Both the position numbers and the translations under genes were made by a program. Positions 3,108 through 59,941 of a stretch of 64,000 bases of DNA are shown here, piece by piece. The stretch lies in contig CAZLKB010000003.1 in assembly GCA_964560005.1 (NCBI GenBank), positions 174,951 through 238,950 on the forward strand. Direction: 5' to 3'. Within the stretch, counting starts at the first letter, position 1. The number at the start of each line of letters is the position of its first letter. The stretch comes from an uncultured Gammaproteobacteria bacterium. GTDB lineage: Bacteria > Patescibacteriota > Patescibacteriia > Patescibacteriales > GWC2-42-12. Under the pieces are notes generated by a model. The model was not told where the DNA came from, did not search any database, and saw only the letters and a program-made list of their open reading frames with translations.

Positions 3108-4214
3108 TTAGTAATTTATTTTAGATCTTATAATGATGCTTTCCATCACCCCGACCAGCATTAAACTGGACAATAAGCCGCTGCCGCCATAGCTGACCAA
3201 GGGCAAAGATATGCCCACGACCGGCAAAATACCGAGATTCATACCTATATTAATAAACATTTCAATAAAAATCAAGCTGACCGAGCCCAAAATGAAAAAA
3301 ACTCCGAAATCATTGTTGATTCTTTTTAGGTGATAAATAGACCGATAAAAAAATATACCAAAGAATAATAAAATAAGCAAGACCCCGATAAAACCCAGCT
3401 CTTCGGCAATGACGGCAAAAATAAAATCAGTTTGAGCTTCGGGCAAAAACTTAAGCTGCGATTGCGACCCGAACCCGAGGCCGCGGCCGGCTAGTCCGCC
3501 GGCGCCAACCGCGATAATCGCCTGTGAAACATTATAGCCTTGATCCAGGTCATTAAACGATGGATTCAAAAAGGTGTTTATTCTTTCTTTCTGATAATCC
3601 TGAAACACAAAGTACCAAGAACCGGTAAAAATAACCGCTATGGCTAAAAAAATCATCAAAAAATATTTTTTACTGAAACCAACCAGCGCCACCATGGCCA
3701 GCCATAATAAAAATAGAACAAAGGCCGAACCGAAATCCGGTTGCGCCAGCACCAGAACGATAAATAACAAAACTCCGCTGCCGGAAACCAAGAGATGTTT
3801 AAACTCTTTAATTTTAAGCGAAATTGAAGAAAAATATTTTGCCAAAAATAAGACCAAAATAAATTTTATCAATTCAACCGGCTGGAGGTTGAAACCGCCC
3901 AGATTATACCAACCCCTGGTGCCGCGGTTCACTTGGCCGAAAATTAAAACTCCGACTAATAAAATAAAACCGATGATATAAAAATACCTATGATAACTTC
4001 TTAAATTATTATAATCAAAAAAAGCAAACAAAAAAAGCAAAACCATGCCTAAAACGATAAAAAGGATTTGCTTTTTAAAATTTAGCAGGTCTAACTGCGA
4101 ACGCCCCAGCGCTACGCTATAAATTTCCGCTAAACCGAAGCAGACCAATAAAACCACCGGGGCGAATAGGATCCAGTCAAAATTTTTTAAATATGAAACT
4201 AATTTATTAAACAT
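3108..4214 (-). CDS. SEDS-family peptidoglycan glycosyltransferase (FtsW/RodA/SpoVE)
   Basis: About 10 TM segments; C-terminal LPxxGxxLPLxSYGGSxLL-like motif (GISLPLVSYGGSGLLSS). Confidence 0.88.
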   Translation of the reverse strand: MFNKLVSYLKNFDWILFAPVVLLVCFGLAEIYSVALGRSQLDLLNFKKQILFIVLGMVLLFLFAFFDYNNLRSYHRYFYIIGFILLVGVLIFGQVNRGTRGWYNLGGFNLQPVELIKFILVLFLAKYFSSISLKIKEFKHLLVSGSGVLLFIVLVLAQPDFGSAFVLFLLWLAMVALVGFSKKYFLMIFLAIAVIFTGSWYFVFQDYQKERINTFLNPSFNDLDQGYNVSQAIIAVGAGGLAGRGLGFGSQSQLKFLPEAQTDFIFAVIAEELGFIGVLLILLFFGIFFYRSIYHLKRINNDFGVFFILGSVSLIFIEMFINIGMNLGILPVVGISLPLVSYGGSGLLSSLMLVGVMESIIIRSKINY

Positions 4215-4337
4215 TAATCTAAATTACCAATGACTAATGACAAATGTCAAATCAATGTCAAATGACAAATTACAAATTTGCTACGCTTACGCTGAAAATT
4301 ATTTTGTCATTGGAAATTTGTCATTTGTCATTTTAAT
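4215..4337. repeat. AT-rich word dyad (AATGACAAAT / ATTTGTCATT family)
   Basis: Left half has aatgacaaatg words, right half their complements; the 15-mer gtcatttgtcatttt (4320-4334) recurs inside rsmI at 51071-51085. Confidence 0.7.
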
Positions 4338-5303
4338 CTACTTTTTTTCCCCCACCCCTCCTTCGTAAGGAATATAAATATCATCTTTCATAATATTAAT
4401 TTCGGGAATAACTTTTACCGAATCAACCCAGCCGATCGCCCCCGGCCAACTGATTTCAATAAATCTTTTTTCGCCGGACATAAAATCGTTTAAAGTATAA
4501 TGGTTTACATTTACCAGCTCGCCGCCGCCGTAAAGCAGAATCGCGAAGCCGATATCCCAATAATTATAAGCCGTATGATTAGTCGCGTTGAAACTCAGCT
4601 GGTTTAAATTTAACTTTTCGGATAATGGGCTTGAATTCGAGGGCGTGAACTTAATATCAGCGCTTTCAATATTTAAATGCTCCTGATAATATTGATTCCA
4701 ATCGGAAATTTTATGCTGATCAATCCTCTGCCAGCTGATGTTTTCCATAATCAGCTGGGCTTGATCCGGCTCGTAAGTAAAATCTTGAGCCAGGGAAAAG
4801 AAATATTTAGTTTCTCCGGGCAGTATAAAACCCTTGGCTTTCGGCGTCTGAAGCTCGGCGGCAATAAAATAATAATCAAACTCCACCCACCATTTCTGAT
4901 TCTCGTTGGTCAACTGGGCGTAGAGATCATATTTTTTATCAGTTGATCTCAAAATGCCGATCGGTGCGATAGACAACGGCTTGGCGCTAATTTGTAAAAT
5001 ATAATCATGGCCGATGCTGTTGGTTTCAACTAATTGTTTCACTAATATACTGTCTTCGTTCATCCCGCGGGCTAAATAGTAAGCAAAGCCATAAATAGAA
5101 TAAGTCCAAGAAACCACGCCGACTAAAATTAAAAAACCATAGAACAATTTTCTGAATAATTGCTTATGTTCAACATACCATAAGCCGATTTCCAGCTGTT
5201 TGGTAGTCACTCCCTCGGGTCCGCTATAATTTTTCAGCTTGGCTTCAATCTCTCTTTGTTTAATTTGTTCTTGATTTTGATTAATACTTTGTTGGTTATC
5301 CAT
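4338..5303 (-). CDS. Hypothetical membrane protein
   Basis: 321-aa ORF, polar N-terminus, TM segment(s), large C-terminal domain; no motif recognised. Confidence 0.6.
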   Translation of the reverse strand: MDNQQSINQNQEQIKQREIEAKLKNYSGPEGVTTKQLEIGLWYVEHKQLFRKLFYGFLILVGVVSWTYSIYGFAYYLARGMNEDSILVKQLVETNSIGHDYILQISAKPLSIAPIGILRSTDKKYDLYAQLTNENQKWWVEFDYYFIAAELQTPKAKGFILPGETKYFFSLAQDFTYEPDQAQLIMENISWQRIDQHKISDWNQYYQEHLNIESADIKFTPSNSSPLSEKLNLNQLSFNATNHTAYNYWDIGFAILLYGGGELVNVNHYTLNDFMSGEKRFIEISWPGAIGWVDSVKVIPEINIMKDDIYIPYEGGVGEKK

Positions 5304-7575: not shown

Positions 7576-7581
7576 CATATC

Positions 7582-7608
7582 TGTCATCGCGGGCTTGACC
7601 CGCGATCC
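7582..7608. repeat. TGTCAT-type hairpin element
   Basis: tgtcatcgcgggcttgacccgcgatcc; stem atcgcggg/cccgcgat. Confidence 0.8.
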
Positions 7609-7632
7609 ATTTCCATAATTTACACAAACAAA

Positions 7633-10101: not shown

Positions 10102-10653
10102 TTATTTATTTCTTAATTTCTTATAATCGTTTTTTAAAATACTCATTATTATTACATCAATAAATTTTCCATGTTTATAAACCGTTTGTCTATGTAAGCC
10201 TTCTTTTTTAAAGCCGCATTTTTCATAGCATCTTATACCTCTTTTATTAAAAGTAAATACTCCCAACTCTATTCGGTTCAGTTTTAATTTTTTAAATCCA
10301 AATTTTAAAATCGTTCTTAATGTATCCGCGCCTAAACCCTGCCCCCAATAATTTTTATCGCCGATAACGATGCCCCAAGTAGCTTTTAAATTTTTCTTCG
10401 TATCAATTTGTTGTAGTCCTGTGTTACCAATTAGTTCTCCATCTTTTGTATAGATTGCCCACCTGATCGCTGTTTTGTCGCACTTTGACTTATTAATAAA
10501 TTCTATTTCTTTCTTTAATGTCAGGCCGCTATGGTCGCGTCCTAAATACATATCCACTCCAGGGTCCTTAAACCAACGCAAAAAACTTTCCGCCTGGCTT
10601 AAATTTAACGGTTTCAAAATTACTTTTTTCCCTTTTAATATCGGCGCTTTCAT
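10102..10653 (-). CDS. GNAT-family N-acetyltransferase (RimJ/RimL-like)
   Basis: WGQGLGADTLRTILKFGF and NKRGIRCYEKCGFKKEG motifs; start moved to Met51 because residues 1-50 are translated repeat elements. Confidence 0.85.
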   Translation of the reverse strand: MKAPILKGKKVILKPLNLSQAESFLRWFKDPGVDMYLGRDHSGLTLKKEIEFINKSKCDKTAIRWAIYTKDGELIGNTGLQQIDTKKNLKATWGIVIGDKNYWGQGLGADTLRTILKFGFKKLKLNRIELGVFTFNKRGIRCYEKCGFKKEGLHRQTVYKHGKFIDVIIMSILKNDYKKLRNK

Positions 10654-10662
10654 ATATTTTTC

Positions 10663-10689
10663 TGTCATTGCGGGCTTGACCCGCAATCC
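10663..10689. repeat. TGTCAT-type hairpin element
   Basis: tgtcattgcgggcttgacccgcaatcc, near-identical to 7582-7608. Confidence 0.8.
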
Positions 10690-10747
10690 AGGAGTTAGTA
10701 GTACGCTTGTTAGTTTTACATTATCATTGTTAGCGCTACGCCCTCCT

Positions 10748-10802
10748 GGATTCCGGCTTCGCCCCGCAGATGCGGGGCTCTCCTTCGGAGGCCGGAATGA
10801 CA
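10748..10802. repeat. TGTCAT-type element (reverse orientation) with nested CCCCGCAGATGCGGGG hairpin
   Basis: ggattccggc ... gccggaatgaca with ccccgcagatgcgggg inside; the latter recurs at 38653 and as a variant at 10934. Confidence 0.7.
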
Positions 10803-11044
10803 ATTTTATTATTTTATTTAAAAACCCCGTCTCAATGCACTACAAAATAATGCACTGGGACGGGGCTCAAGTCGCCTCGTGGTTCCACCCAATTTCCCCG
10901 CCCAAGGCGGGACACTCTTTTATTCGGCTTAGCCCCGCATCCGCGGGGTCCCGCATAAAACGGGACTATACTTGGTAATATAGCAATCGCCTAAATGTAA
11001 TATTATTATATATTATTCAGACAAAATGTCAATGATTAGTTTGC

Positions 11045-11246
11045 GCTTGTTTGTGCTGAGCTTGAATAATTTATTTTCGGAGTGAGGACTGTTTGAGCCC
11101 CCACCATTTTTTCTCCTCATGTCACAAACAATCAAAAGTTACTTAATTTGGTTTGAGCAATAATTTTTCTAAGAGTTCTTAAAAAATGGTGTGGGCGAGT
11201 TCCGCAGCGAGAAAATAAATTATTCAAGCTCAGCGCGTTAACAAGC
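11045..11246. repeat. About 200-bp foldback (MITE-like) element
   Basis: Arms gcttgt..tgctgagcttgaataatttattttc.. and ..gaaaataaattattcaagctcagcg..acaagc; shares the ATTTATTTT..GCGAG / CCGCAGCGA..AAATAAAT core with 58503-58650. Confidence 0.75.
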
Positions 11247-11247
11247 T

Positions 11248-16492: not shown

Positions 16493-16590
16493 AATTTTCA
16501 ATTCATAATTTTCAATTTTCAAACAATTTTCAATGCTTTAATTTTCAATTGAAAATTGGTCATTGTAAATTGAAAATTTTTTTCTGTACA
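16493..16590. repeat. AT-rich word dyad (AATTTTCAA / TTGAAAATT family)
   Basis: Contains the perfect palindrome aattttcaattgaaaatt. Confidence 0.7.
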
Positions 16591-16672
16591 AATTTAACGA
16601 AAAGCAATTCCATTATTACCAAATTAGACGCATTAAAGGCACAACATATTTGTGCCTCCTTTTAACTATTTA

Positions 16673-17985: not shown

Positions 17986-18030
17986 ATTATTATTAAATTA
18001 ATATTTAGTTTATTGACAAAAACTTTAGTA

Positions 18031-18162
18031 AAATTTTCAAACACCAATTTTCAATTTTCAATGAATTTTCAAAGTTATAATTTTCAAACTTTCCACCATT
18101 TTTATTTGTAAATTGATTCATTGTAATTTCATTGAAAATTGAGAATTGAAAATTGAAAATTA
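18031..18162. repeat. AT-rich word dyad (AATTTTCAA / TTGAAAATT family)
   Basis: ccaattttcaattttcaatg ... cattgaaaattgagaattgaaaattgaaaatt. Confidence 0.7.
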
Positions 18163-18164
18163 AT

Positions 18165-18962: not shown

Positions 18963-19075
18963 AATTAAAAATGACAGTTAAAAATGTAAAATTAAATATT
19001 TAAACATTTTAAACTTTACATTGTCATTTTACACTTTGATATTTACATTTTACATTTGTATTATACCCCATTTCT
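18963..19075. repeat. AT-rich word dyad (TGTAAAAT / AAAATGACA family)
   Basis: The 18-mer aaaatgacagttaaaaat is shared with the groEL upstream spacer (30618-30740). Confidence 0.65.
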
Positions 19076-19128: not shown

Positions 19129-19215
19129 GCCGATGTGGTGAAATTGGTAAACGCGCACGACTCAAAATCGTGTGGCTTAACGGCCTTGTGGGTTCGAGTC
19201 CCACCATCGGCACCA
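19129..19215 (+). tRNA. tRNA-Leu (anticodon CAA), class II with long variable arm, CCA encoded
   Basis: Acceptor GCCGATG/CATCGGC, anticodon arm CACGA-CTCAAAA-TCGTG, variable arm GGC..GCC, T arm GTGGG-TTCGAGT-CCCAC, 3' ACCA. Confidence 0.93.
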
Positions 19216-20643: not shown

Positions 20644-20674
20644 ACTGTCTTACACCATCAACAAAAACAACACG

Positions 20675-20707
20675 GGGTTTCGCGCCAATAAGCGAAATCC
20701 TTTTTTT
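20675..20707 (+). terminator. Terminator after purD
   Basis: gggtttcgc ... gcgaaatcc stem followed by T7. Confidence 0.7.
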
Positions 20708-20782
20708 ATTAAAAAATTCAAATTTTATTACCGTCTTAAAATCACCCGGGGTTTGTGTGACGAGCTAACCGCCAAAGAAAAT

Positions 20783-20800
20783 TGTCATTCCCGGGAAGGC
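20783..20800. repeat. Truncated TGTCAT-type element
   Basis: tgtcattcccgggaaggc; only one half present. Confidence 0.5.
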
Positions 20801-20886
20801 AGTAATATATATATAGTTTGTATATTCCGTATGATACCATTATAACGTCTATAGTGTTACGAAGTCATTGAACCACTTCGTTTTAC

Positions 20887-20916
20887 TTGACAAAATATTA
20901 AAACTATGATTATATA
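20887..20916 (+). promoter_or_regulatory. Candidate promoter for the 62-aa ORF
   Basis: TTGACA - 18 nt - TATATA. Confidence 0.4.
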
Positions 20917-21014
20917 TAATGTTATCCAATTATTAAAATATAATAAATCCCTTCCTAAATCATGTACAAACAAATTAAATATAACAAAAACAACAAGTAA
21001 AGAATGAGAAAATA

Positions 21015-21203
21015 ATGAAAAGAAGATCTTTAATAATCATTGCATTAATCGTTCCCATTGCTGTGGTAACATTCTGGACTGCAGTCCAGAATGCCCTTCA
21101 ACACAAATGGTGGTTATTTGCCTGTAATATCCTAACAATTTTCTGTTCTGTAGGCGTCACAATGCTACAATGGGAAATATATAAAAATACACCTCCCGAC
21201 TAG
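21015..21203 (+). CDS. Orphan 62-aa two-TM membrane peptide
   Basis: Two hydrophobic helices; own promoter-like and terminator signals; AT-rich unlike the flanking pur genes. Confidence 0.45.
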   Translation: MKRRSLIIIALIVPIAVVTFWTAVQNALQHKWWLFACNILTIFCSVGVTMLQWEIYKNTPPD

Positions 21204-21232
21204 AAGGTGTCGAGGAATGCGCCTTGCCAAAT

Positions 21233-21267
21233 CCCGCTATGTCGAAATAAAACTGGCGGGTTTTTTT
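21233..21267 (+). terminator. Terminator after the 62-aa ORF
   Basis: cccgc ... gcggg stem followed by T7. Confidence 0.6.
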
Positions 21268-21316
21268 ATTTGCCTTTTCCGCGCTTTTATACTAATGTTT
21301 AATTAAACAAAAGGAG

Positions 21317-21346
21317 GACCGAACCCAAATAAGGTTTGGTCTTTTT
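21317..21346 (+). terminator. Second stem-loop plus T-run (terminator or attenuator) upstream of the purB unit
   Basis: gaccgaacc ... ggtttggtc stem followed by T5. Confidence 0.4.
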
Positions 21347-21417
21347 GGCCTTTAACAACCCCTAAAATGGGGATAATAGCAAAACAACAAACACCAAAAC
21401 AGAAAGAAAGTAATAAT

Positions 21418-27189: not shown

Positions 27190-27305
27190 TGAAAAATTAA
27201 AATTTCAAAATGTAAAATGACAATGCAAAATGTAAAATTATTTTTATTTAGACATTTTAAACTTTTAATTGTCACTTTTAATTTTGATTTTTACATTTTA
27301 AATTT
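27190..27305. repeat. AT-rich word dyad (TGTAAAAT / AAAATGACA family)
   Basis: aaaatgtaaaatgacaatgcaaaatgtaaaatt ... aattgtcacttttaattttgatttttacatttt. Confidence 0.65.
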
Positions 27306-28424: not shown

Positions 28425-28478
28425 AAAAAAGAGCCTTGGCGGATAGTTCGTTAAATGGTAACGAATCTCCGCCAAGGC
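28425..28478 (-). terminator. Strong rho-independent terminator on the - strand
   Basis: gccttggcgga / tccgccaaggc 11-bp stem extended by ttcgtta/taacgaa; T6 follows on the - strand. Confidence 0.75.
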
Positions 28479-28492
28479 GTTGATGCAAGGTG

Positions 28493-28699
28493 CTATTGCG
28501 CCAGCAGACGCTGCGATATTGCACGGATATGTTGCGTACCCGTTTCGGGCATTTGAGTTATAAGCTTTCTGGCCTCAAGCCGACCCCCTTCGCTCAAAGC
28601 GTTGCGCGCTAAGAGCAGCAACGCCGTCGCCATGATGGCGGATACAGCTGGCGAGACACATTTTGGAAACCAGCAAAAGAGCCTGCAAGTTATCGCCAA
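28493..28699 (-). CDS. Possible small protein (46-68 aa) in a GC-rich island; could be ncRNA or a gene remnant
   Basis: ORF ends 15 nt before the terminator; internal ATG gives MATALLLLARNALSEGGRLEARKL...; no RBS or family recognised. Confidence 0.3.
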   Translation of the reverse strand: MAITCRLFCWFPKCVSPAVSAIMATALLLLARNALSEGGRLEARKLITQMPETGTQHIRAISQRLLAQ

Positions 28700-28800
28700 A
28701 CTGGGGTGGTTCCCTCGGCTAACAAAATAGCCAAATAGCCATTTTAAACCACGCGCCGCGGCGGTTCGTCACTAAGACGACCCCACGGCTTTTTTTAATT

Positions 28801-28958
28801 GCAAATTAAAAGCGAATTAAACACGAATATATCGCTAATTAAATGCGAATTCAGCGAATAAAAACAGGCGTGGAGTAATTCCCGCGCCTGTTTTGGGCAA
28901 ATTATAAAATTCGCTAAATTCGCATTTCATTCGTTCTTATTCGCTTTTCATTCGCGAT
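28801..28958. repeat. Word dyad (CGAAT family) around the groEL terminator
   Basis: gcgaattaaacacgaat...gcgaattcagcgaat versus attcgctaaattcgcatttcattcg...; central hairpin caggcg..cgcctg (28860-28891) with a T-run on the - strand. Confidence 0.7.
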
Positions 28959-30740
<1,782 letters not shown>

Positions 30741-32134: not shown

Positions 32135-32239
32135 TTTATCTAAACTATATACGAATTACAAATTTATTACAAATTTACGAATAATTAAGTATTTTAGTCA
32201 TAAATTTGTAAATTTGTACAGGATTTGTAATTTGTATAC
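32135..32239. repeat. AT-rich word dyad (ACAAATTTAC / GTAAATTTGT family)
   Basis: cgaattacaaatttattacaaatttacg ... cataaatttgtaaatttgtacaggatttgtaatttgta. Confidence 0.65.
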
Positions 32240-32787: not shown

Positions 32788-34316
<1,529 letters not shown>

Positions 34317-35866: not shown

Positions 35867-35877
35867 TCGTCTTTTAT

Positions 35878-35946
35878 TGTCATCCTGAACTTGATTCAGG
35901 ATCTACTTTTTTGCCGAATAGATTCCGGGTCAAGCCCGGAATGACA
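35878..35946. repeat. Composite TGTCAT...ATGACA inverted pair
   Basis: tgtcatcctgaacttgattcaggatc ... gattccgggtcaagcccggaatgaca. Confidence 0.85.
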
Positions 35947-35953
35947 TAATATA

Positions 35954-37516
35954 TTATTTCACCAAATACTCCACCGTCTCCTTATAATCCTCAACCAGTT
36001 TCTTCATCTCCCCTTCCAGCTTTTCGTTTAACTCCTTCTTCTCGGCGATTTCTTTTAATATCTTAGCGCCGCTGGTAGCCGCGTATTTATGAAGCCCGGC
36101 TTCAAATTCCGCGATTTTTTCCACCGGCACATTATCCGCCAAACCGTTAATCAAAGCAAAGAAAATCAAAACTTGATTGGCTACGGCGAGGGGCGAATAT
36201 TGGCCCTGCTTAAATATTTCCTGTAATCTCTTGCCGCGCTCCAGCTTAGCTTTAGTGTCCTTATCCAAATCAGAACCGAATTGGGCGAAAGCGGCCAATT
36301 CTCTGAACTGCGCCGCCTCCAGCTTCATTTTTCCGGCAACTTTCTTCATGGCTTTTATCTGCGCAGAACTGCCGACCCGGGAAACCGAGAGGCCGGCGTC
36401 CACGGCCGGACGGCTGCCCTGATAAAACAATTCCGGCATTAAATAAATTTGGCCGTCGGTAATGGAAATGACATTGGTCGGAATATAGGCCGACATATCC
36501 CCGGCTTGGGTTTCAATAATCGGCAAAGCGGTAATGGAACCGCCGCCGTATTCCTTACTCAACTTGCAGGCTCTTTCCAATAATCTGGAATGTAGATAGA
36601 AGACATCGCCGGGATAGGCTTCGCGGCCGGGCGGGCGCCTTAAAAGCAAGGAAATTTCACGATAGGCTACCGCGTGCTTAGACAAATCATCATATACTAT
36701 TAAAACATCTTCGCCCTTGTCTAAAAAGTATTCGGCCATGGCGCAGCCGGCATATGGAGCGATATAGAGGAGTGATGCCGGATCCGAGGCTCCGGCCAAG
36801 ACAACCGTGGTATATTCAAGCGCGCCCGATTGTTCCAACTTAGCCACCATGCTCGCCACTTTAGATTCTTTCTGCCCGATGGCTACATAAATACACTTCA
36901 TGTTTTGGCCTTTTTGATTGATAATCGTATCTATAGCTATGGCGCTTTTGCCGATCTGGCGGTCGCCGATAATCAATTCTCTTTGCCCGCGGCCGATAGG
37001 AATAATCGCGTCAATAACCTTGATTCCGGTCTGAACCGGCTCCTTAACTCCCTGGCGGGTAATTACGCCCGGCGCGATTTTTTCCACCGGATAAAATTTT
37101 TCCGCCTCTATTTCCCCCTTGCCGTCCAGCGGCTGGCCCAAGGCGTTAAGCACGCGCCCGATAACGCCAGGTCCCACCGGCACCTCCAGAATTTTTTTCA
37201 GGCATCTTACCTCGTCGCCCGCTTTAATTTTTGAACTATCGCCCAAAATTATGGCTCCGACTCGATCTTCTTCCAAATTAAGCGCCACGCCATAAGACTT
37301 TTCATTTTCAACCAATTCGCGTTCATTCGCGTTCATTCGCGATGAATTCGTGATCTCCAACATTTCCGACATCATGACATCGGAGATGCCTTCAATTCTG
37401 GCAATGCCGTCGCCGACTTCAATCACCCGGCCGACGGTTTGCTCCTTCACGCTAGCCTTATAACCGGCGATTTGCTCTCTTAATTGTTCAACGATAAAAT
37501 CTTTGGTATTATTCAT
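35954..37516 (-). CDS. atpA: ATP synthase F1 alpha subunit with an in-frame repeat-derived insertion near the N-terminus
   Basis: Walker A GDRQIGKS, typical alpha motifs; extra [19 protein letters not shown] segment. Confidence 0.98.
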
Positions 37517-37620
37517 ATAAATTTTTAATTTATAATTTTGAATTTTGATTAAATTTTTAATAATTAATTATTAAACCATTCAAAATTAATTCAAAACTCA
37601 AAATTCATTATTCAAAATTT
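37517..37620. repeat. AT-rich word dyad (GAATTTT / AAAATTC family)
   Basis: ttttgaattttgatt ... ttcaaaattaattcaaaactcaaaattcattattcaaaatt. Confidence 0.6.
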
Positions 37621-38022: not shown

Positions 38023-38108
38023 AAAAAATAATTTCTAACAATAATTGAAAATTTAGACATTATTACATTGAAAATTGTTTGAAAATTGAGAATTGAAAAT
38101 TGAAAATT
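38023..38108. repeat. AT-rich word repeat (TTGAAAATT family)
   Basis: cattgaaaattgtttgaaaattgagaattgaaaattgaaaatt. Confidence 0.6.
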
Positions 38109-38597: not shown

Positions 38598-38790
38598 AAT
38601 GAATAATGTAAAATGTAAATCTCAAAATGAAAAATGCTAGCTCCGCTAACACCCCGCAGATGCGGGGTCATTGCAGAGCAATGACAATGAAAAATTCAAA
38701 ATGAATTAATAATTTTACATTTTTAATTGTCATTTTTAGATTTACATTTTCAACTTTACATTTTTAATAATCTCACCCCTGCCCCAGCCA
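38598..38790. repeat. 220-bp spacer: TGTAAAAT word dyad enclosing GC-rich hairpins
   Basis: ccccgcagatgcgggg (38653-38668) and gtcattgcagagcaatgac (38667-38685), flanked by tgtaaaatgtaaat / atttacatttt words. Confidence 0.7.
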
Positions 38791-41509: not shown

Positions 41510-41570
41510 TGTCATTCCCGCGAAGGCGGAAATCCATTTCCTTTGTCATTGCGGGCTCAGACCCGCAATC
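41510..41570. repeat. Two tandem TGTCAT-type hairpin elements
   Basis: tgtcattcccgcgaaggcggaaatcc and tgtcattgcgggctcagacccgcaatc. Confidence 0.85.
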
Positions 41571-41575
41571 TAGAA

Positions 41576-41728
41576 TTTTTAATTTCCAATTTTATAATTT
41601 TTAAATAAATCTTAATTTTTAATTTTTAAAATAATAACTTTGGCTATTTTACTGTTTGAAAATTAAAAAATTTAATCATTAAAAATTGTTTGAAAATTGA
41701 AAATTAGAAATTGAAAATTCTTGATTTA
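41576..41728. repeat. AT-rich word dyad (AATTTTTAA / TTGAAAATT family)
   Basis: tttaatttccaattttataattttt ... aaaaattgtttgaaaattgaaaattagaaattgaaaatt. Confidence 0.6.
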
Positions 41729-42364
41729 CTATTCCCTTATCACTTTTATATTCTCCATATCTCTTAAATCTATTAATTTAGATGGTTTCGCGTTCGCGCA
41801 TTCTCCCGCGTCAATCGCCAGGTCTGGCAAAACCGTAAAATATTTTTCCAAGCCTCTTACATTATCCAGAGGCGGCTCGCCGGTTTTATTCAAACTGGTG
41901 GAAACGATAGGAAAGCCAGCCTTACTAATCATTTTAATCAAAAATTCACTTTTTGGCAATCTAACGGCCAAACTATTTAAGCCGCGGGTTAATTCTTCAG
42001 GCAAATTTTTCCTGCCTTTAAAAATAACAGTGGTCGGCCCGCTTTTTACCCCCTTAATAAAGGGGGTTAGGGGGATTTTTCGTACTCCCCAAACCTTTTT
42101 TAAATACTCCATCTGTTCCTCGCTAACTTCACAATACTCTTTCAGCATGATAAAATCACTTATTAAAATTATGAATGGCTTTTCATCCCTGCCGCCCTTT
42201 ATCTTTTTTATCTTTTCCACCGCTCGCGCATCGCGCGCGTCGCAGCCCAGACCATAAATCGTATCGGTCGGATAAGCGATCACTAAACCGCGCTTTAAAT
42301 AATCCACGATTATGTCTATTTGTTCTGGAGTTATTTTATTTATGTCTATTTTTATGGTTTGCAT
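41729..42364 (-). CDS. tsaC: L-threonylcarbamoyladenylate synthase (TsaC/YrdC family) with an in-frame repeat insertion
   Basis: VIAYPTDTIYGLGCDA, VSTSLNKTGEPP; the W-GPTTVIF motif is interrupted by 16 extra residues. Confidence 0.9.
   Translation of the reverse strand: MQTIKIDINKITPEQIDIIVDYLKRGLVIAYPTDTIYGLGCDARDARAVEKIKKIKGGRDEKPFIILISDFIMLKEYCEVSEEQMEYLKKVWGVRKIPLTPFIKGVKSGPTTVIFKGRKNLPEELTRGLNSLAVRLPKSEFLIKMISKAGFPIVSTSLNKTGEPPLDNVRGLEKYFTVLPDLAIDAGECANAKPSKLIDLRDMENIKVIRE
42048..42079. repeat. GC-rich CCCCCTTAATAAAGGGGGTTAGGGGGATT element inside tsaC
   Basis: Same family as intergenic copies at 44701-44745, 44812-44842 and 10069-10090. Confidence 0.85.
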
Positions 42365-44691: not shown

Positions 44692-44700
44692 ATTATTTTT

Positions 44701-44842
44701 GCCCCTTTTAACAAAGGGGGTTAGGGGGATTTAAACCCTCCTTCTAAAGGAGGGTTAGGGAGGTTTCCGCCGGAGGCGGATCCGCCTTTGGCGGAAAATT
44801 AACATTGATTAACCCCCTTAATCCCCCTTTATAAGGGGGACG
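44701..44842. repeat. Array of GC-rich mini-hairpin repeats
   Basis: cccctttaacaaaggggg, ccctccttctaaaggaggg, tccgccggaggcgga, atccgcctttggcgga and cccccttaatccccctttataaggggga in one spacer. Confidence 0.85.
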
Positions 44843-44851
44843 GTAATACTT

Positions 44852-49187: not shown

Positions 49188-49257
49188 TGTCATTGCGGCC
49201 TCCGAGCCGCAATCTTCTCTGTCAATTCATAGATCCCGGGTCAAGCCCGGGATGACA
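49188..49257. repeat. Composite TGTCAT...ATGACA inverted pair
   Basis: tgtcattgcggcctccgagccgcaatc ... gatcccgggtcaagcccgggatgaca. Confidence 0.85.
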
Positions 49258-49265
49258 ACCTAAAA

Positions 49266-50726: not shown

Positions 50727-50872
50727 AAATATGACAATTTTTAATTTCTAATTTTCAATTTTTAAACAATTTTCAATGACTTAATTTTCAATTTTAAAAA
50801 CCAGGGGCATTGAAAATTGAAACATTAAATCATTGTTTGAAAATTGAAAATTGAAAATTGAAAATTTTTTAA
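50727..50872. repeat. AT-rich word dyad (AATTTTCAA / TTGAAAATT family)
   Basis: ctaattttcaatttttaaacaattttcaatg ... cattgaaaattgaaac...gtttgaaaattgaaaattgaaaattgaaaatt. Confidence 0.7.
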
Positions 50873-51610
50873 CTATTTTCCCACAATAACCACGAACTCC
50901 CCCTTCTGATCGTTTTTATCCGCTTTAATTTTTTCAATTATGCTTTTTAAATCGCCACGATAAACCGTTTCATGCATCTTGGACAGCTCGCGGCATACCA
51001 CTACTGATGTTAAATTTGCCATTTTACTTTTGTCATTTGGATTTTGACATTGATTTGTCGTTTGGCATCCGTCATTTGTCATTTTCTCCAGCTCGTCTAA
51101 AAACTTCAAGATTCTATGCTTAGATTCATAAACCACTACCGGATACTCGCTGGTTGCGATTTTTTTAATAAAAGTCTGCCGCCCCTTTTTATGCGGCGGA
51201 AAACCCATAAAAATAAATTTATCCGTGGGTATGCCGGAGATTGATAAAGCGGCCGTAACCGCCGACGGTCCGGGCACGGCTTCAATCTGCACCTCGTTAT
51301 TTAATTTCTCCAAAATTATTTGGATCAGCTTGCCGCCCGGATCGGAAATGCCGGGCGTGCCGGCGTCGGACACCAGGGCCAAATTTTTGCCGCTTGCCAG
51401 CAAATCTATTACTTCATTTTCTTTGCTTAAACCGGAATGCTGATGGTAAGAAATCGTCGGAGTTTTTATATTATAACGTTTGAGCAAGACCGAAGTAACG
51501 CGCGTATCTTCGCATAATATAAAATCGACTTCGCCTAATATGCGAAGCGCTCTCATGCTGATATCCTCTAAATTGCCGATTGGCGTGGCCACGATGTATA
51601 GGGTGGACAT
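50873..51610 (-). CDS. rsmI: 16S rRNA (cytidine1402-2'-O)-methyltransferase with an in-frame repeat insertion
   Basis: LYIVATPIGNLEDIS, CEDTR, SDAGTPGISDPG; start at Met10. Confidence 0.92.
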   Translation of the reverse strand: MSTLYIVATPIGNLEDISMRALRILGEVDFILCEDTRVTSVLLKRYNIKTPTISYHQHSGLSKENEVIDLLASGKNLALVSDAGTPGISDPGGKLIQIILEKLNNEVQIEAVPGPSAVTAALSISGIPTDKFIFMGFPPHKKGRQTFIKKIATSEYPVVVYESKHRILKFLDELEKMTNDGCQTTNQCQNPNDKSKMANLTSVVVCRELSKMHETVYRGDLKSIIEKIKADKNDQKGEFVVIVGK

Positions 51611-51725
51611 AATAAAAATTAAAAATGCAAAAATCAAAATGTAAAATTATTGTAAAATTATTTCGTGAAAAATTTTTAAAATTTTTCACTCCATAATTTT
51701 TAACTTTAATTTTTAAATTTTACAT
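51611..51725. repeat. AT-rich word dyad (TGTAAAAT family)
   Basis: aaaatgcaaaaatcaaaatgtaaaatt ... tttaatttttaaattttacattt. Confidence 0.55.
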
Positions 51726-54315: not shown

Positions 54316-54344
54316 AAGCGAATAAAAAAACGACATATATTACT

Positions 54345-54412
54345 TGTCATCCCGGGCCTGACCCGGGATCTTATGGTTAAGCCATAGATCCTGAATCAAG
54401 TTCAGGATGACA
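54345..54412. repeat. Composite TGTCAT...ATGACA inverted pair between convergent mscL and typA
   Basis: tgtcatcccgggcctgacccgggatc - tatggttaagccata - gatcctgaatcaagttcaggatgaca. Confidence 0.85.
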
Positions 54413-54430
54413 TTTAGTATATTGTCGTTT

Positions 54431-56257: not shown

Positions 56258-56335
56258 CCCTACAAATTTACAAATCGGCTACGAATATCACAAATAATAT
56301 TTGTACTATTTGTAGCTGATTTGTAGATTTGTGGG
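56258..56335. repeat. Second copy of the palindromic dyad seen upstream of atpC
   Basis: ccctacaaatttacaaatcggctacgaatat...gtagctgatttgtagatttgtggg; lies 37 bp upstream of the typA start. Confidence 0.85.
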
Positions 56336-59444: not shown

Positions 59445-59452
59445 TAAACACG

Positions 59453-59489
59453 CCGCAATGATTGGAAAACCAATTCTTGCGGTTTTTTT
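59453..59489 (+). terminator. Rho-independent terminator
   Basis: ccgcaa..attgg aaaa ccaat..ttgcgg followed by T7. Confidence 0.85.
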
Positions 59490-59640
59490 ATTTTTGCATT
59501 ATCTTAATTAAGAAATAATTTTGTCTTCTTAAAATTTTCCTTATCATTTTCTACTACCTGCCGGTTTTCCGGAGATTTTGGCATAAGTTTATTCAGTTTA
59601 AAATAGTTATACCGATATTATACCATTTATCCCGCTAATA

Positions 59641-59886
59641 AAAAAACGGGTGACTTTGATTTAATTTCTCAAGGTTACCCGTCTGGGCTACTTATTGCTT
59701 GCGTCTGCAAGCAACCCCTCCCATCATGCCCAAGGAGGGAGTCGCCGGACAGCACGTCTTAATTGTTGTTATTGTTGTTTGATCTGTACATAAAATAGGC
59801 GCCTTTTTAATGAGCCATACTTCACTTTAAGGTTAATACAACTAACCCTCGTGGATCGTTTAACCCTCGTGGATCGTTGTTCCGTT
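59641..59886 (-). ncRNA. Candidate about 245-nt structured small RNA of unknown class
   Basis: Own promoter (59893-59921), tandem 18-nt repeat forming ACGA-loop hairpins, 8-bp hairpin ttgcttgc-agac-gcaagcaa, terminal hairpin plus T6; no ORF longer than 10 codons. Confidence 0.4.
59843..59878. repeat. Perfect tandem direct repeat, 18 bp x2
   Basis: taaccctcgtggatcgtt taaccctcgtggatcgtt. Confidence 0.95.
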
Positions 59887-59892
59887 ATTTTG

Positions 59893-59921
59893 ATAATAGC
59901 ACAGCTCTTTTTTTCTGACAA
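59893..59921 (-). promoter_or_regulatory. Candidate promoter of the small RNA
   Basis: On the - strand: TTGTCA - 17 nt - TATTAT, starting 20 nt after the stop of the upstream gene. Confidence 0.5.
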
Positions 59922-59941
59922 GGCTAAGATTACAGGCTAGA

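Follow-up and report, generated by a model that had tools for sequence, protein, structure and literature searches.

How does a run of short A+T-rich words, of a kind that also fills an intergenic spacer, come to be translated inside a conserved rRNA methyltransferase? The question is raised by the rsmI gene in a 64-kb stretch of DNA (64,000 nt, hereafter the window). The comparisons reported here point to one arm of a dispersed hairpin element as the source of the extra segment. Related loci are referred to by our own L numbers.

The host gene and the position of the insert

The rsmI coding sequence occupies positions 50873 to 51610 of the window on the minus strand (245 aa), with the start MSTLYIVATPIGN and the stop codon at 50873-50875, as indicated by the ORF list, the PF00590 domain and homologues. 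PF00590 was found in all 120 RsmI homologues compared (66-84% identity). The product aligns with Escherichia coli RsmI (5HW4, E-value = 4.8e-44) on both sides of the insert. From its tetrapyrrole-methylase fold domain and its full-length similarity, the host ORF is identified on sequence grounds as RsmI (16S rRNA C1402 2'-O-methyltransferase). The window derives from a Patescibacteria (CPR) genome, and the closest relatives of its RsmI are found in MAGs labelled Patescibacteria, Falkowbacteria or Parcubacteria.

The alignment with 5HW4 pairs residues 1-175 of the query with residues 1-173 of the chain, and resumes at query residue 202 and chain residue 181. The loop in between exceeds that of E. 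coli by 19 residues and that of the shortest close orthologues by 13-17. At this site the 120 homologues exhibit between 0 and +46 extra amino acids. The original prediction, made from the letters of the window, had claimed an insertion of about 22 codons in an otherwise continuous RsmI. Continuity is confirmed by the 5HW4 alignment on either side; the size was roughly right, the part colinear with the repeat arm described below being 20 codons. This segment (M177 to K196, MTNDGCQTTNQCQNPNDKSK) is located at 51023-51082 on the minus strand. It is 60 nt long, leaves the rsmI ORF intact, and contains codons that are rare in the source genome (ACA 11%, TGT 21%). In an AlphaFold2 model based on 42 homologues, a helix (residues 164-179) is followed by residues 181-197 with pLDDT below 50 and by a strand (202-208). 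The insert is thereby predicted to form a disordered loop between this helix and this strand.

Match with one arm of a spacer hairpin

An ORF-less hairpin element of the TGACAAA type occupies positions 4215-4337, the spacer between an FtsW/RodA-family gene (3108-4214; PF01098) and the next gene (4338-5303). Its arms extend over about 4226-4281 and 4296-4334. Folded as RNA, the element reaches -27.9 kcal/mol (z = -3.45), and none of 200 shuffles folds as well. A 15-mer of the rsmI insert, GTCATTTGTCATTTT (51071-51085, plus strand), had been predicted to be identical to positions 4320-4334. This holds: the word occurs exactly twice in the window, at these two places, and with one mismatch at most allowed, none of 100 dinucleotide shuffles reaches two matches (mean 0.03). 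The word TGTCATTTG occurs three times in the window, against 0.44 expected. A second shared 15-mer, not mentioned in the original prediction, lies at 51043-51057 (TTTGACATTGATTTG on the plus strand, listed also as tttgacattgatttg) and is the reverse complement of 4251-4265.

Matching of coding and non-coding words at k = 12 was too noisy in this A+T-rich window, and was replaced by local alignment against shuffled and coding controls. Both 15-mers fall in a single ungapped alignment of 56 nt, which pairs rsmI 51028-51085 with the left arm of the 4215-4337 element, taken as its reverse complement; about 44 positions (about 79%) are identical. Its score of 57 compares with a mean of 27.7 (sd 3.3, maximum 41) for dinucleotide shuffles of the insert, which lies about 9 sd below, and it is unmatched by 1436 other 72-nt coding windows (mean 23.8, sd 3.7, maximum 52). 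Random expectation for such words, a reservation attached to the original prediction, is therefore exceeded in both controls.

The region around the insert (51005-51095) does not exhibit any hairpin of its own: z is +0.45, and 140 of 200 shuffles fold equally well or better. This rules out that the insert is a complete palindromic element, as does its alignment to one arm. Since the spacer element has a long hairpin and the insert has no fold of its own, the gene holds a single arm. The 4215-4337 element is the sole donor-type copy within the window, 47 kb away from rsmI. Against Rfam, this hairpin obtained just a sub-threshold match to a miRNA precursor (21 bits, cut-off 83), and the window as a whole yielded one tRNA and no rRNA.

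A dispersed hairpin family and its PF05635 ORF

The twenty codons M177-K196 are colinear with the arm ATGACAAATGACAAATTTCCAATGACAAATCAATGTCAAAATCCAAATGACAAAA of the TGACAAA-type hairpins. They are also colinear with the 5' leader (MTNDKFPMTNQIQNPNDKNK) of an ORF, described below. Sequence comparison thus shows the 60-nt segment of rsmI to be homologous to one arm of a dispersed hairpin element. Metagenome contigs were scanned for the 23-mer signature AATGACAAATTTCCAATGACAAA, and at least 120 exact matches were obtained. Among the matches listed, we classified 109 non-identical copies, the gene calls at all loci compared being simple longest-ORF calls. Clear ORF-less hairpins account for 31 of the 109 and single or degenerate arms in non-coding DNA for 54; seven copies lie near a contig end. 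In seven further copies the arm is the 5' leader of an ORF of about 130 aa, five copies are at the 5' end of long ORFs, and five are in frame within long ORFs. Most family copies among the matches listed are thus intergenic hairpins devoid of an ORF, like 4215-4337.

The ORF of about 130 aa belongs to PF05635 ("23S rRNA intervening-sequence protein"; 46.2 bits, cut-off 33.8). In ORF-bearing copies, from metagenomes and genomes alike, the complementary arm comes directly after it. The complete element therefore consists of a TGACAAA-type arm of 7-8-nt words, a PF05635 four-helix-bundle ORF and the complementary arm, the first arm making up about the first 20 codons of the ORF. Inverted repeats, with scores of 32-57, flank 15 of the 17 PF05635 ORFs that could be tested. 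PF05635 genes with arms built of other words are present in L021, L134, L007, L047 and L088. For L159, L021 and L134, the arms have matches among the ORF-less hairpins of the window (TGACAAA, AAAATTG and AAAATGT families). These matches score 58-72, except for the right arm of L159 (43), where shuffles reach at most 36-47. In particular, the 4215-4337 hairpin is identical at 30 of 30 nt to the left arm of the L159 element. No significant counterpart among the window spacers was found for the arms of the L047, L088 and L007 elements.

In most of its spacers the window exhibits word hairpins or G+C-rich palindromes. PF05635 is absent from the six small window ORFs that were scanned, and the window copy at 4215-4337 is itself ORF-less. 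The L003 element and the 4215-4337 element stand in different genomic contexts, yet they share identical runs of 32-33 nt in each arm; the synonymous sites of rsmI are near saturation between L003 and the window genome. No transposase could be tied to the family, the sole arm-associated ORF being PF05635, which is not a known transposase.

Many ORF-less copies retain ATTAATTT in the loop, adjoining the right arm; in the ORF-bearing form, a similar TATTAATTT stands at the stop codon. This resemblance suggests that ORF-less copies arose through internal deletion.

Spacers around rsmI

Similar elements surround rsmI itself. Directly downstream of the gene is an ORF-less hairpin of the AAAATTG word family (50727-50872), which matches the right arm of the L021 PF05635 element with a score of 58 (shuffle maximum 47). 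The upstream spacer (51638-51725) contains, by sequence comparison, an AAAATGT-family hairpin. In L003, L009 and L074 the spacer directly upstream of rsmI holds a TGACAAA hairpin, and in L047 and L088 it holds a PF05635 element. The L003 insert shares exact runs of 21-26 nt with the hairpin just upstream of the L003 rsmI gene. Among 67 related genomes, this spacer is empty (1-28 nt) in about 23; most of the others exhibit a hairpin built of one or another of many different words, and two a PF05635 element. The word content thus varies between copies at one and the same orthologous spacer.

Arms and other repeats in further proteins

Among the matches listed from metagenomes, the same arm is read in the same frame in DprA, a MiaB-like enzyme, RNase HII, PGM/PMM and GyrB. 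It is found between DNA_processg_A and the winged-helix domain in DprA, between UPF0004 and Radical_SAM in the MiaB-like enzyme, after domain III in PGM/PMM, and between Toprim and the C-terminal domain in GyrB; four of these five in-frame inserts, among the matches listed, lie between Pfam domains. Only one of the three sense frames of the arm is free of stop codons. This open frame is hydrophilic (mean hydropathy -1.9) and is the one read in rsmI and, as a check of the frame of the coding copies revealed, in all five other proteins. The antisense frames are hydrophobic. The single antisense coding copy among the matches listed (L096) corresponds to a hydrophobic stretch of a protein predicted to lie in the membrane.

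In other lineages the RsmI loop holds different repeats. Those of L044, L045 and L006 each match spacers of their own locus (z = 12.6 with 39 of 40 nt identical, 8.3 and 7.6, respectively). About 50 of the 58 RsmI loops of other lineages gave no significant match within 20 kb or less of their own locus, which says little because so small a part of each genome was compared. In the window, tsaC carries an insert of 15 codons (VRKIPLTPFIKGVKS; 42041-42085, minus strand) from a G+C-rich palindromic repeat, with a score of 52 to the spacer 44692-44851; we take this insert to interrupt a conserved motif of the enzyme family. The insert of atpA, 17 codons of CGAATGA words (37295-37345, minus strand), matches the spacer 28476-28958 weakly (score 31).

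The original prediction had proposed an in-frame invasion of rsmI by a repeat, the same process acting in tsaC and atpA. For rsmI, this is supported by the colinearity with the arm, the repeats of other lineages, the five other proteins and the orthologues that lack the segment (see below). Its extension to tsaC stands, and atpA is a probable further case of this process, given its weaker spacer match.

Presence and absence among orthologues

An insert of the same length and at the same position is present in L003, L001/L002, L004 and L088 at the DNA level, and in P0004 at the protein level. It is common to at least five related species of Patescibacteria; the event is old enough to be shared by them, and the presence of the insert does not track the RsmI gene tree (see below). 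The inserts of L003, L001, L004 and L088 are colinear with the hairpin arm. P0004 appears to hold a further repeat nested within the same insert, as seen at the protein level.

In codon alignments, L085, L086 and L087 lack 13 codons of the insert. Outside the loop these three are 81-86% identical to the window protein, and the carriers 80-87%; alignment of orthologues, one of the checks suggested with the original prediction, thus reveals equally close relatives without the 13 codons. The corresponding 39-nt indel is placed at 51038-51076 on the minus strand, its exact placement being ambiguous owing to a direct repeat that bounds it. The left copy of this repeat (51071-51078, minus strand) reads CAAATGAC in the window and TCAAATGACAAA in L003, and the right copy (51032-51039, minus strand) is CAAATGAC again. 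A local tandem-repeat expansion was considered and rejected: there is no head-to-tail copy of adjacent host sequence, only 8-12 nt of the insert are repeated locally, and the remainder matches the dispersed arm. Because a word of the arm itself makes up the direct repeat of 8-12 nt at the indel, this repeat is not separable from a target-site duplication.

The insert-free sites of L085, L086 and L087 read atg kca aay gac raa. In the distant RsmI genes L012, L026, L060 and L079 the loops are short and contain no such word; therefore M-[AS]-N-D-x-x-K-K, which the insert-free forms retain, may be the scar of a deletion. Alternatively, the insert-free sites could be the original word-like target.

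Conservation at the nucleotide level

Between carriers, third codon positions are 83-100% identical in the insert; in the flanks the figure is 47-55%. The insert differs between carriers by 0-1 synonymous and 3-8 non-synonymous codon changes, against roughly two synonymous per non-synonymous change in the flanks. Where carriers share an amino acid in the insert, they use the identical codon in 8-13 of 9-13 cases, against 56-70% in the flanks for the same amino-acid types. Pairwise Fisher p-values for this codon identity range from 0.004 to 0.19, the pairs being not independent and several being individually non-significant. The preserved unit is the DNA word, not the peptide. A neutral passenger of such age should have decayed more; therefore the insert either postdates the species or has had its DNA preserved. 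Candidate causes are conversion by other genomic copies, an age younger than the species split, and a constraint at the level of the nucleic acid. Among these, continuing conversion by other arm copies of the genome is the likeliest.

Origin of the insert

We consider it probable (about 0.8) that the disordered surface loop received, in frame, a copy of one arm of an IVS-like PF05635 element, probably the upstream neighbour of rsmI, and that this copy is a tolerated passenger, partly deleted by slippage in some lineages. Homology to the arm, location in the loop, distribution among orthologues, anatomy of the element and recurrence are seen in the comparisons above; the mechanism of copying, the direction of the indel and the mobility of the family are what we infer from them. 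An ancestor of a Falkowbacteria-like clade would have copied one arm into the RsmI loop. The donor was probably an element of the kind that relatives still have in the spacer immediately preceding rsmI, at a distance of about 0.5 kb. Word-sized homology would most likely have primed the copying, by template switching or short-patch gene conversion, and the element would not have transposed as a whole. In some lineages the 39-nt core would later have been lost by slippage between the TCAAATGACAAA repeats, leaving M-[AS]-N-D-x-x-K-K as the scar. The peptide would be a tolerated passenger, selection mainly filtering orientation, frame, hydrophilicity and position in a loop. Counting against this reading are the single arm in rsmI, the distance of 47 kb to the sole donor-type copy of the window, and the nucleotide-level conservation of the insert.

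The most serious rival to this single gain is a series of independent site-specific insertions, in which a mobile arm targets word-like sites (ATGKCAAATGACRAA) and each carrier lineage has recently gained the same 39 nt separately. The RsmI gene tree, on which the main reading draws as well, speaks for it. In bootstrapped neighbour-joining (NJ) trees of 198 loop-free codon columns, from one short protein, L004 (with the insert) and L087 (without) are sisters with 83-94% bootstrap support, and the monophyly of the insert carriers receives 0%. Sisters of opposite state and carriers that are not monophyletic require at least two events. Repeated insertion would also agree with insert DNA far less diverged than the flanking synonymous sites, and with the at least 120 near-identical copies of the family in many contexts. 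However, the five carriers are identical in length, boundaries and internal word order, whereas intergenic copies vary by whole-word indels, and one gain followed by slippage losses between 12-nt direct repeats is mechanistically simpler. On balance we regard repeated insertion as unlikely, though it is the rival to be taken most seriously.

A second alternative is that the segment now serves a function, either as a peptide modulating the docking of RsmI on the 30S subunit, or as an RNA arm that pairs with nearby complementary arms and regulates the expression or processing of rsmI. Such a role would be consistent with a nucleotide conservation exceeding that of synonymous sites. It would also fit the arrangement in L003, where the end of a complementary arm coincides with the rsmI start codon, at a point about 470 nt upstream of the insert. 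Yet no complementary arm was found near rsmI in the window sequence, close relatives manage without the segment, its amino acids vary freely, the loop is predicted to be disordered, and the same arm is found in unrelated proteins. A functional take-over thus appears improbable.

Chance resemblance, that is, a low-complexity linker grown by local slippage whose A+T-rich words mimic the spacer, would account for the variable length of this site (0 to +46 aa among the 120 homologues) and for the many loops rich in K, E and N. It is refuted by the 56-nt alignment, whose score lies about 9 sd above the shuffles and at the top of all coding windows, and by the 60-nt colinearity with PF05635 leaders from other genomes. 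Furthermore, the shared stretch has an irregular, non-periodic sequence (e.g. tttgacattgatttg), and the insert is no duplicate of adjacent rsmI sequence. This explanation is highly improbable. An artefact of assembly or binning (a chimeric contig), conceivable for a metagenome-assembled genome, can practically be dismissed, the same in-frame insert having been recovered in assemblies made independently of one another, with different samples and sources (NCBI GCA_018896595.1 and GCA_022012935.1, ENA, and two JGI metagenomes).

Beyond rsmI, the single-gain reading can be extended tentatively. The word hairpins in the spacers of the source genome, and of many Falkowbacteria-like Patescibacteria, would be the ORF-less stems of undescribed IVS-like selfish elements residing between protein genes. 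Their turnover at orthologous spacers would be rapid, and time and again single arms would pass from them into essential proteins (RsmI, GyrB, DprA, RNase HII, MiaB-like, PGM) as disordered loops. We put the chances of this extension at somewhat below even. If it is true, a family of mobile elements would include the rRNA intervening sequences as one special case, with the PF05635 proteins as candidate mobility or maintenance factors. In its own right, the rsmI insert offers a concrete, datable case of a genome-reduced uncultivated bacterium acquiring new protein segments, with its intergenic hairpins supplying the arms and with frame, hydrophilicity and loop position acting as the filter. It also ties the anonymous and very abundant spacer repeats of CPR bacteria to an identifiable element, PF05635 with inverted repeats, of which the only described relatives are rRNA intervening sequences. 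With at least 120 copies outside rRNA, the question of origin and mobility becomes accessible to comparative genomics and RNA end-mapping. In practice, such inserts make loops longer, give rise to spurious N-terminal extensions, and can lead the annotation and alignment of CPR proteins astray.

Comparison with known systems

In the open-access literature on CPR/Patescibacteria, a coverage that is incomplete, we found no PF05635/IVS-like elements and no repeat-derived in-frame inserts. Several known systems nevertheless share part of the pattern. Like MITEs and REP/BIME sequences, the copies described here are short, numerous and non-autonomous-looking hairpins in spacers. Unlike MITEs, the family has no associated transposase, and its word content differs at the same orthologous spacer. 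TIGR-Tas arrays have units of about 36 nt and an associated Tas gene; they are ruled out here by the period of 7-8 nt and by PF05635 being the sole associated ORF.

Intervening sequences (IVSs) of 23S rRNA with an S23p/PF05635 ORF are known, for example, from Coxiella burnetii and Leptospira (PMC4990558). The IVS of C. burnetii is 428 nt long, has a 28-bp stem of terminal inverted repeats whose loop contains an S23p ORF, and is cut by RNase III; the origin and mobility of rRNA IVSs have been debated since the 1990s (PMC4990558). The complete element described here similarly has a long stem formed by terminal inverted repeats and a PF05635 ORF of about 120-130 aa in its loop, for a total of about 430-500 nt. 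Unlike the rRNA IVSs, which are inserted in helices 9, 25 or 45 of 23S rRNA, the copies examined lie between or inside protein-coding genes, and the window contains no rRNA. In addition, the left arm belongs to the ORF, and ORF-less copies far outnumber the ORF-bearing ones.

In Borg proteins, tandem repeats create disordered regions, these repeats being perfect local tandem duplications (PMC9879509). Here too, repeats common to intergenic and coding DNA yield new disordered, hydrophilic segments. In contrast with the Borg repeats, the unit is of 7-8 nt, non-local, and copied from a dispersed hairpin family.

The closest precedent appears to be the Rickettsia palindromic elements (RPEs), repeats of about 150 bp inserted in frame into protein-coding genes (PMC10969869). 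The likeness is one of behaviour, and we set the Patescibacterial family beside the RPEs by description. In both cases, dispersed palindromic repeats are found in spacers and in frame within unrelated housekeeping genes, the host ORF remains intact, a conserved peptide is produced from one frame, and the inserts are located where the fold tolerates them. The rsmI gene holds one arm of about 60 nt, in contrast to the 150 bp or so of an RPE, the second arm being not inserted. Because only one arm is present, and the likeness does not come from sequence comparison, we do not file the rsmI insert as an RPE. The two systems differ also in their hosts, Patescibacteria and Alphaproteobacteria, and in their build, the arms described here being arrays of 7-8-nt words and the full element carrying a PF05635 ORF.

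Content of the spacer upstream of rsmI

The spacer separating rsmI from a gene of about 550 aa was compared in 67 orthologous loci, those of related genomes (L001-L089) together with the window (51638-51725). It is a fixed site with an extreme turnover of content. In about 23 of the genomes the spacer is empty (1-28 nt), and the non-empty spacers are mostly occupied by hairpins made of quite different words, such as ttaggtttt/aacctata, cacatagca and gtacttagg. A PF05635 element ("23S rRNA intervening-sequence protein" family) is present there at two of the 67 loci.

Hairpins and long non-coding stretches of the window

Long hairpins, each arm of which is an array of a single 7-8-nt word, occupy many spacers of the window. 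Examples are found at 16523-16600, 17986-18164, 18963-19062, 27190-27305, 30618-30740, 32135-32239, 34195-34310, 37517-37620, 38023-38108, 38598-38790, 41516-41728, 50727-50872, 51638-51725 and 56260-56328. The words of these spacers fall into several families (AAAATTG, AAAATGT, GAGTTAC, CGAATTA, ACAAATT, TTTGAAT), and three word families of the window match arms flanking PF05635 ORFs in other genomes. Many hairpins without the ORF (L090, L092, L104, L138, L151, L152) exhibit the loop sequence AATTAATTAATTTTTTGACATT, which is similar to TATTAATTTGACATT, found where the PF05635 ORF meets, at its stop codon, the right arm. This resemblance hints that the ORF-less hairpins derive from the ORF-bearing form by internal deletion of the ORF.

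Four longer non-coding stretches of 440-720 nt (10804-11247, 20644-21366, 28476-28958, 59445-59941) contain neither an ORF of at least 70 aa nor an Rfam family at the gathering threshold. A single tRNA (19129-19212) was found across the whole window.

Repeats in reading frames

A G+C-rich palindromic repeat, aaagggggttagggggattt, lies within the TsaC/Sua5 gene (42041-42085), where it is translated as VRKIPLTPFIKGVKS, and occurs again 2.6 kb away in the spacer 44692-44851. The VRKIPLTPFIKGVKS insert appears to break a conserved motif of this enzyme family. A second G+C-rich palindromic family, tgtcatcccgggcctgacccgggatc and its variants, is present in several window spacers (7576-7610, 35867-35953, 49213-49265, 54340-54415) and in the 5' part of the ORF 10102-10803 (10663-10684); this last copy may count as coding only because the ORF was called too long. 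In AtpA, a 17-codon segment of CGAATGA words (37295-37345) is located towards the N-terminus and matches the spacer repeat at 28476-28958 only weakly.

The TGACAAA-type arm is also read in other contexts. In locus L096, a 748-aa stop-free reading frame that looks like a membrane protein contains the arm in antisense (minus strand, near position 2972); the resulting peptide, LLFVIGNLSFVIYVY, is hydrophobic and resembles a transmembrane segment. The orientation of the arm seems to set the kind of protein able to accept the repeat. Elsewhere (L109, L120, L143, L137, L142, L160) long ORFs start within the arm, which supplies their initial codons (MTNDKFPMT...); they include sugar-kinase-like and glycyl-tRNA-synthetase-like proteins, as named by eye. 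These starts are either genuine N-terminal extensions or start-codon miscalls from the ATG of the repeat itself.

RsmI loops and the annotated start

Some RsmI loops of relatives (L007 10505-10711, L016, L014, L051) carry peptides such as LPTCLPDRQAGQAG, PASTKATAGKQ and SYAKASEGK, which look like translated G+C-rich palindromic repeats; no matching repeat counterpart was found in the flanking DNA covered, at most 20 kb per locus. The public annotation of the window RsmI (P0001, 227 aa) begins at M19 of the ORF 50873-51610 (minus strand) and lacks the conserved N-terminus LYIVATPIGNLEDIS, which aligns with Escherichia coli RsmI from residue 1.
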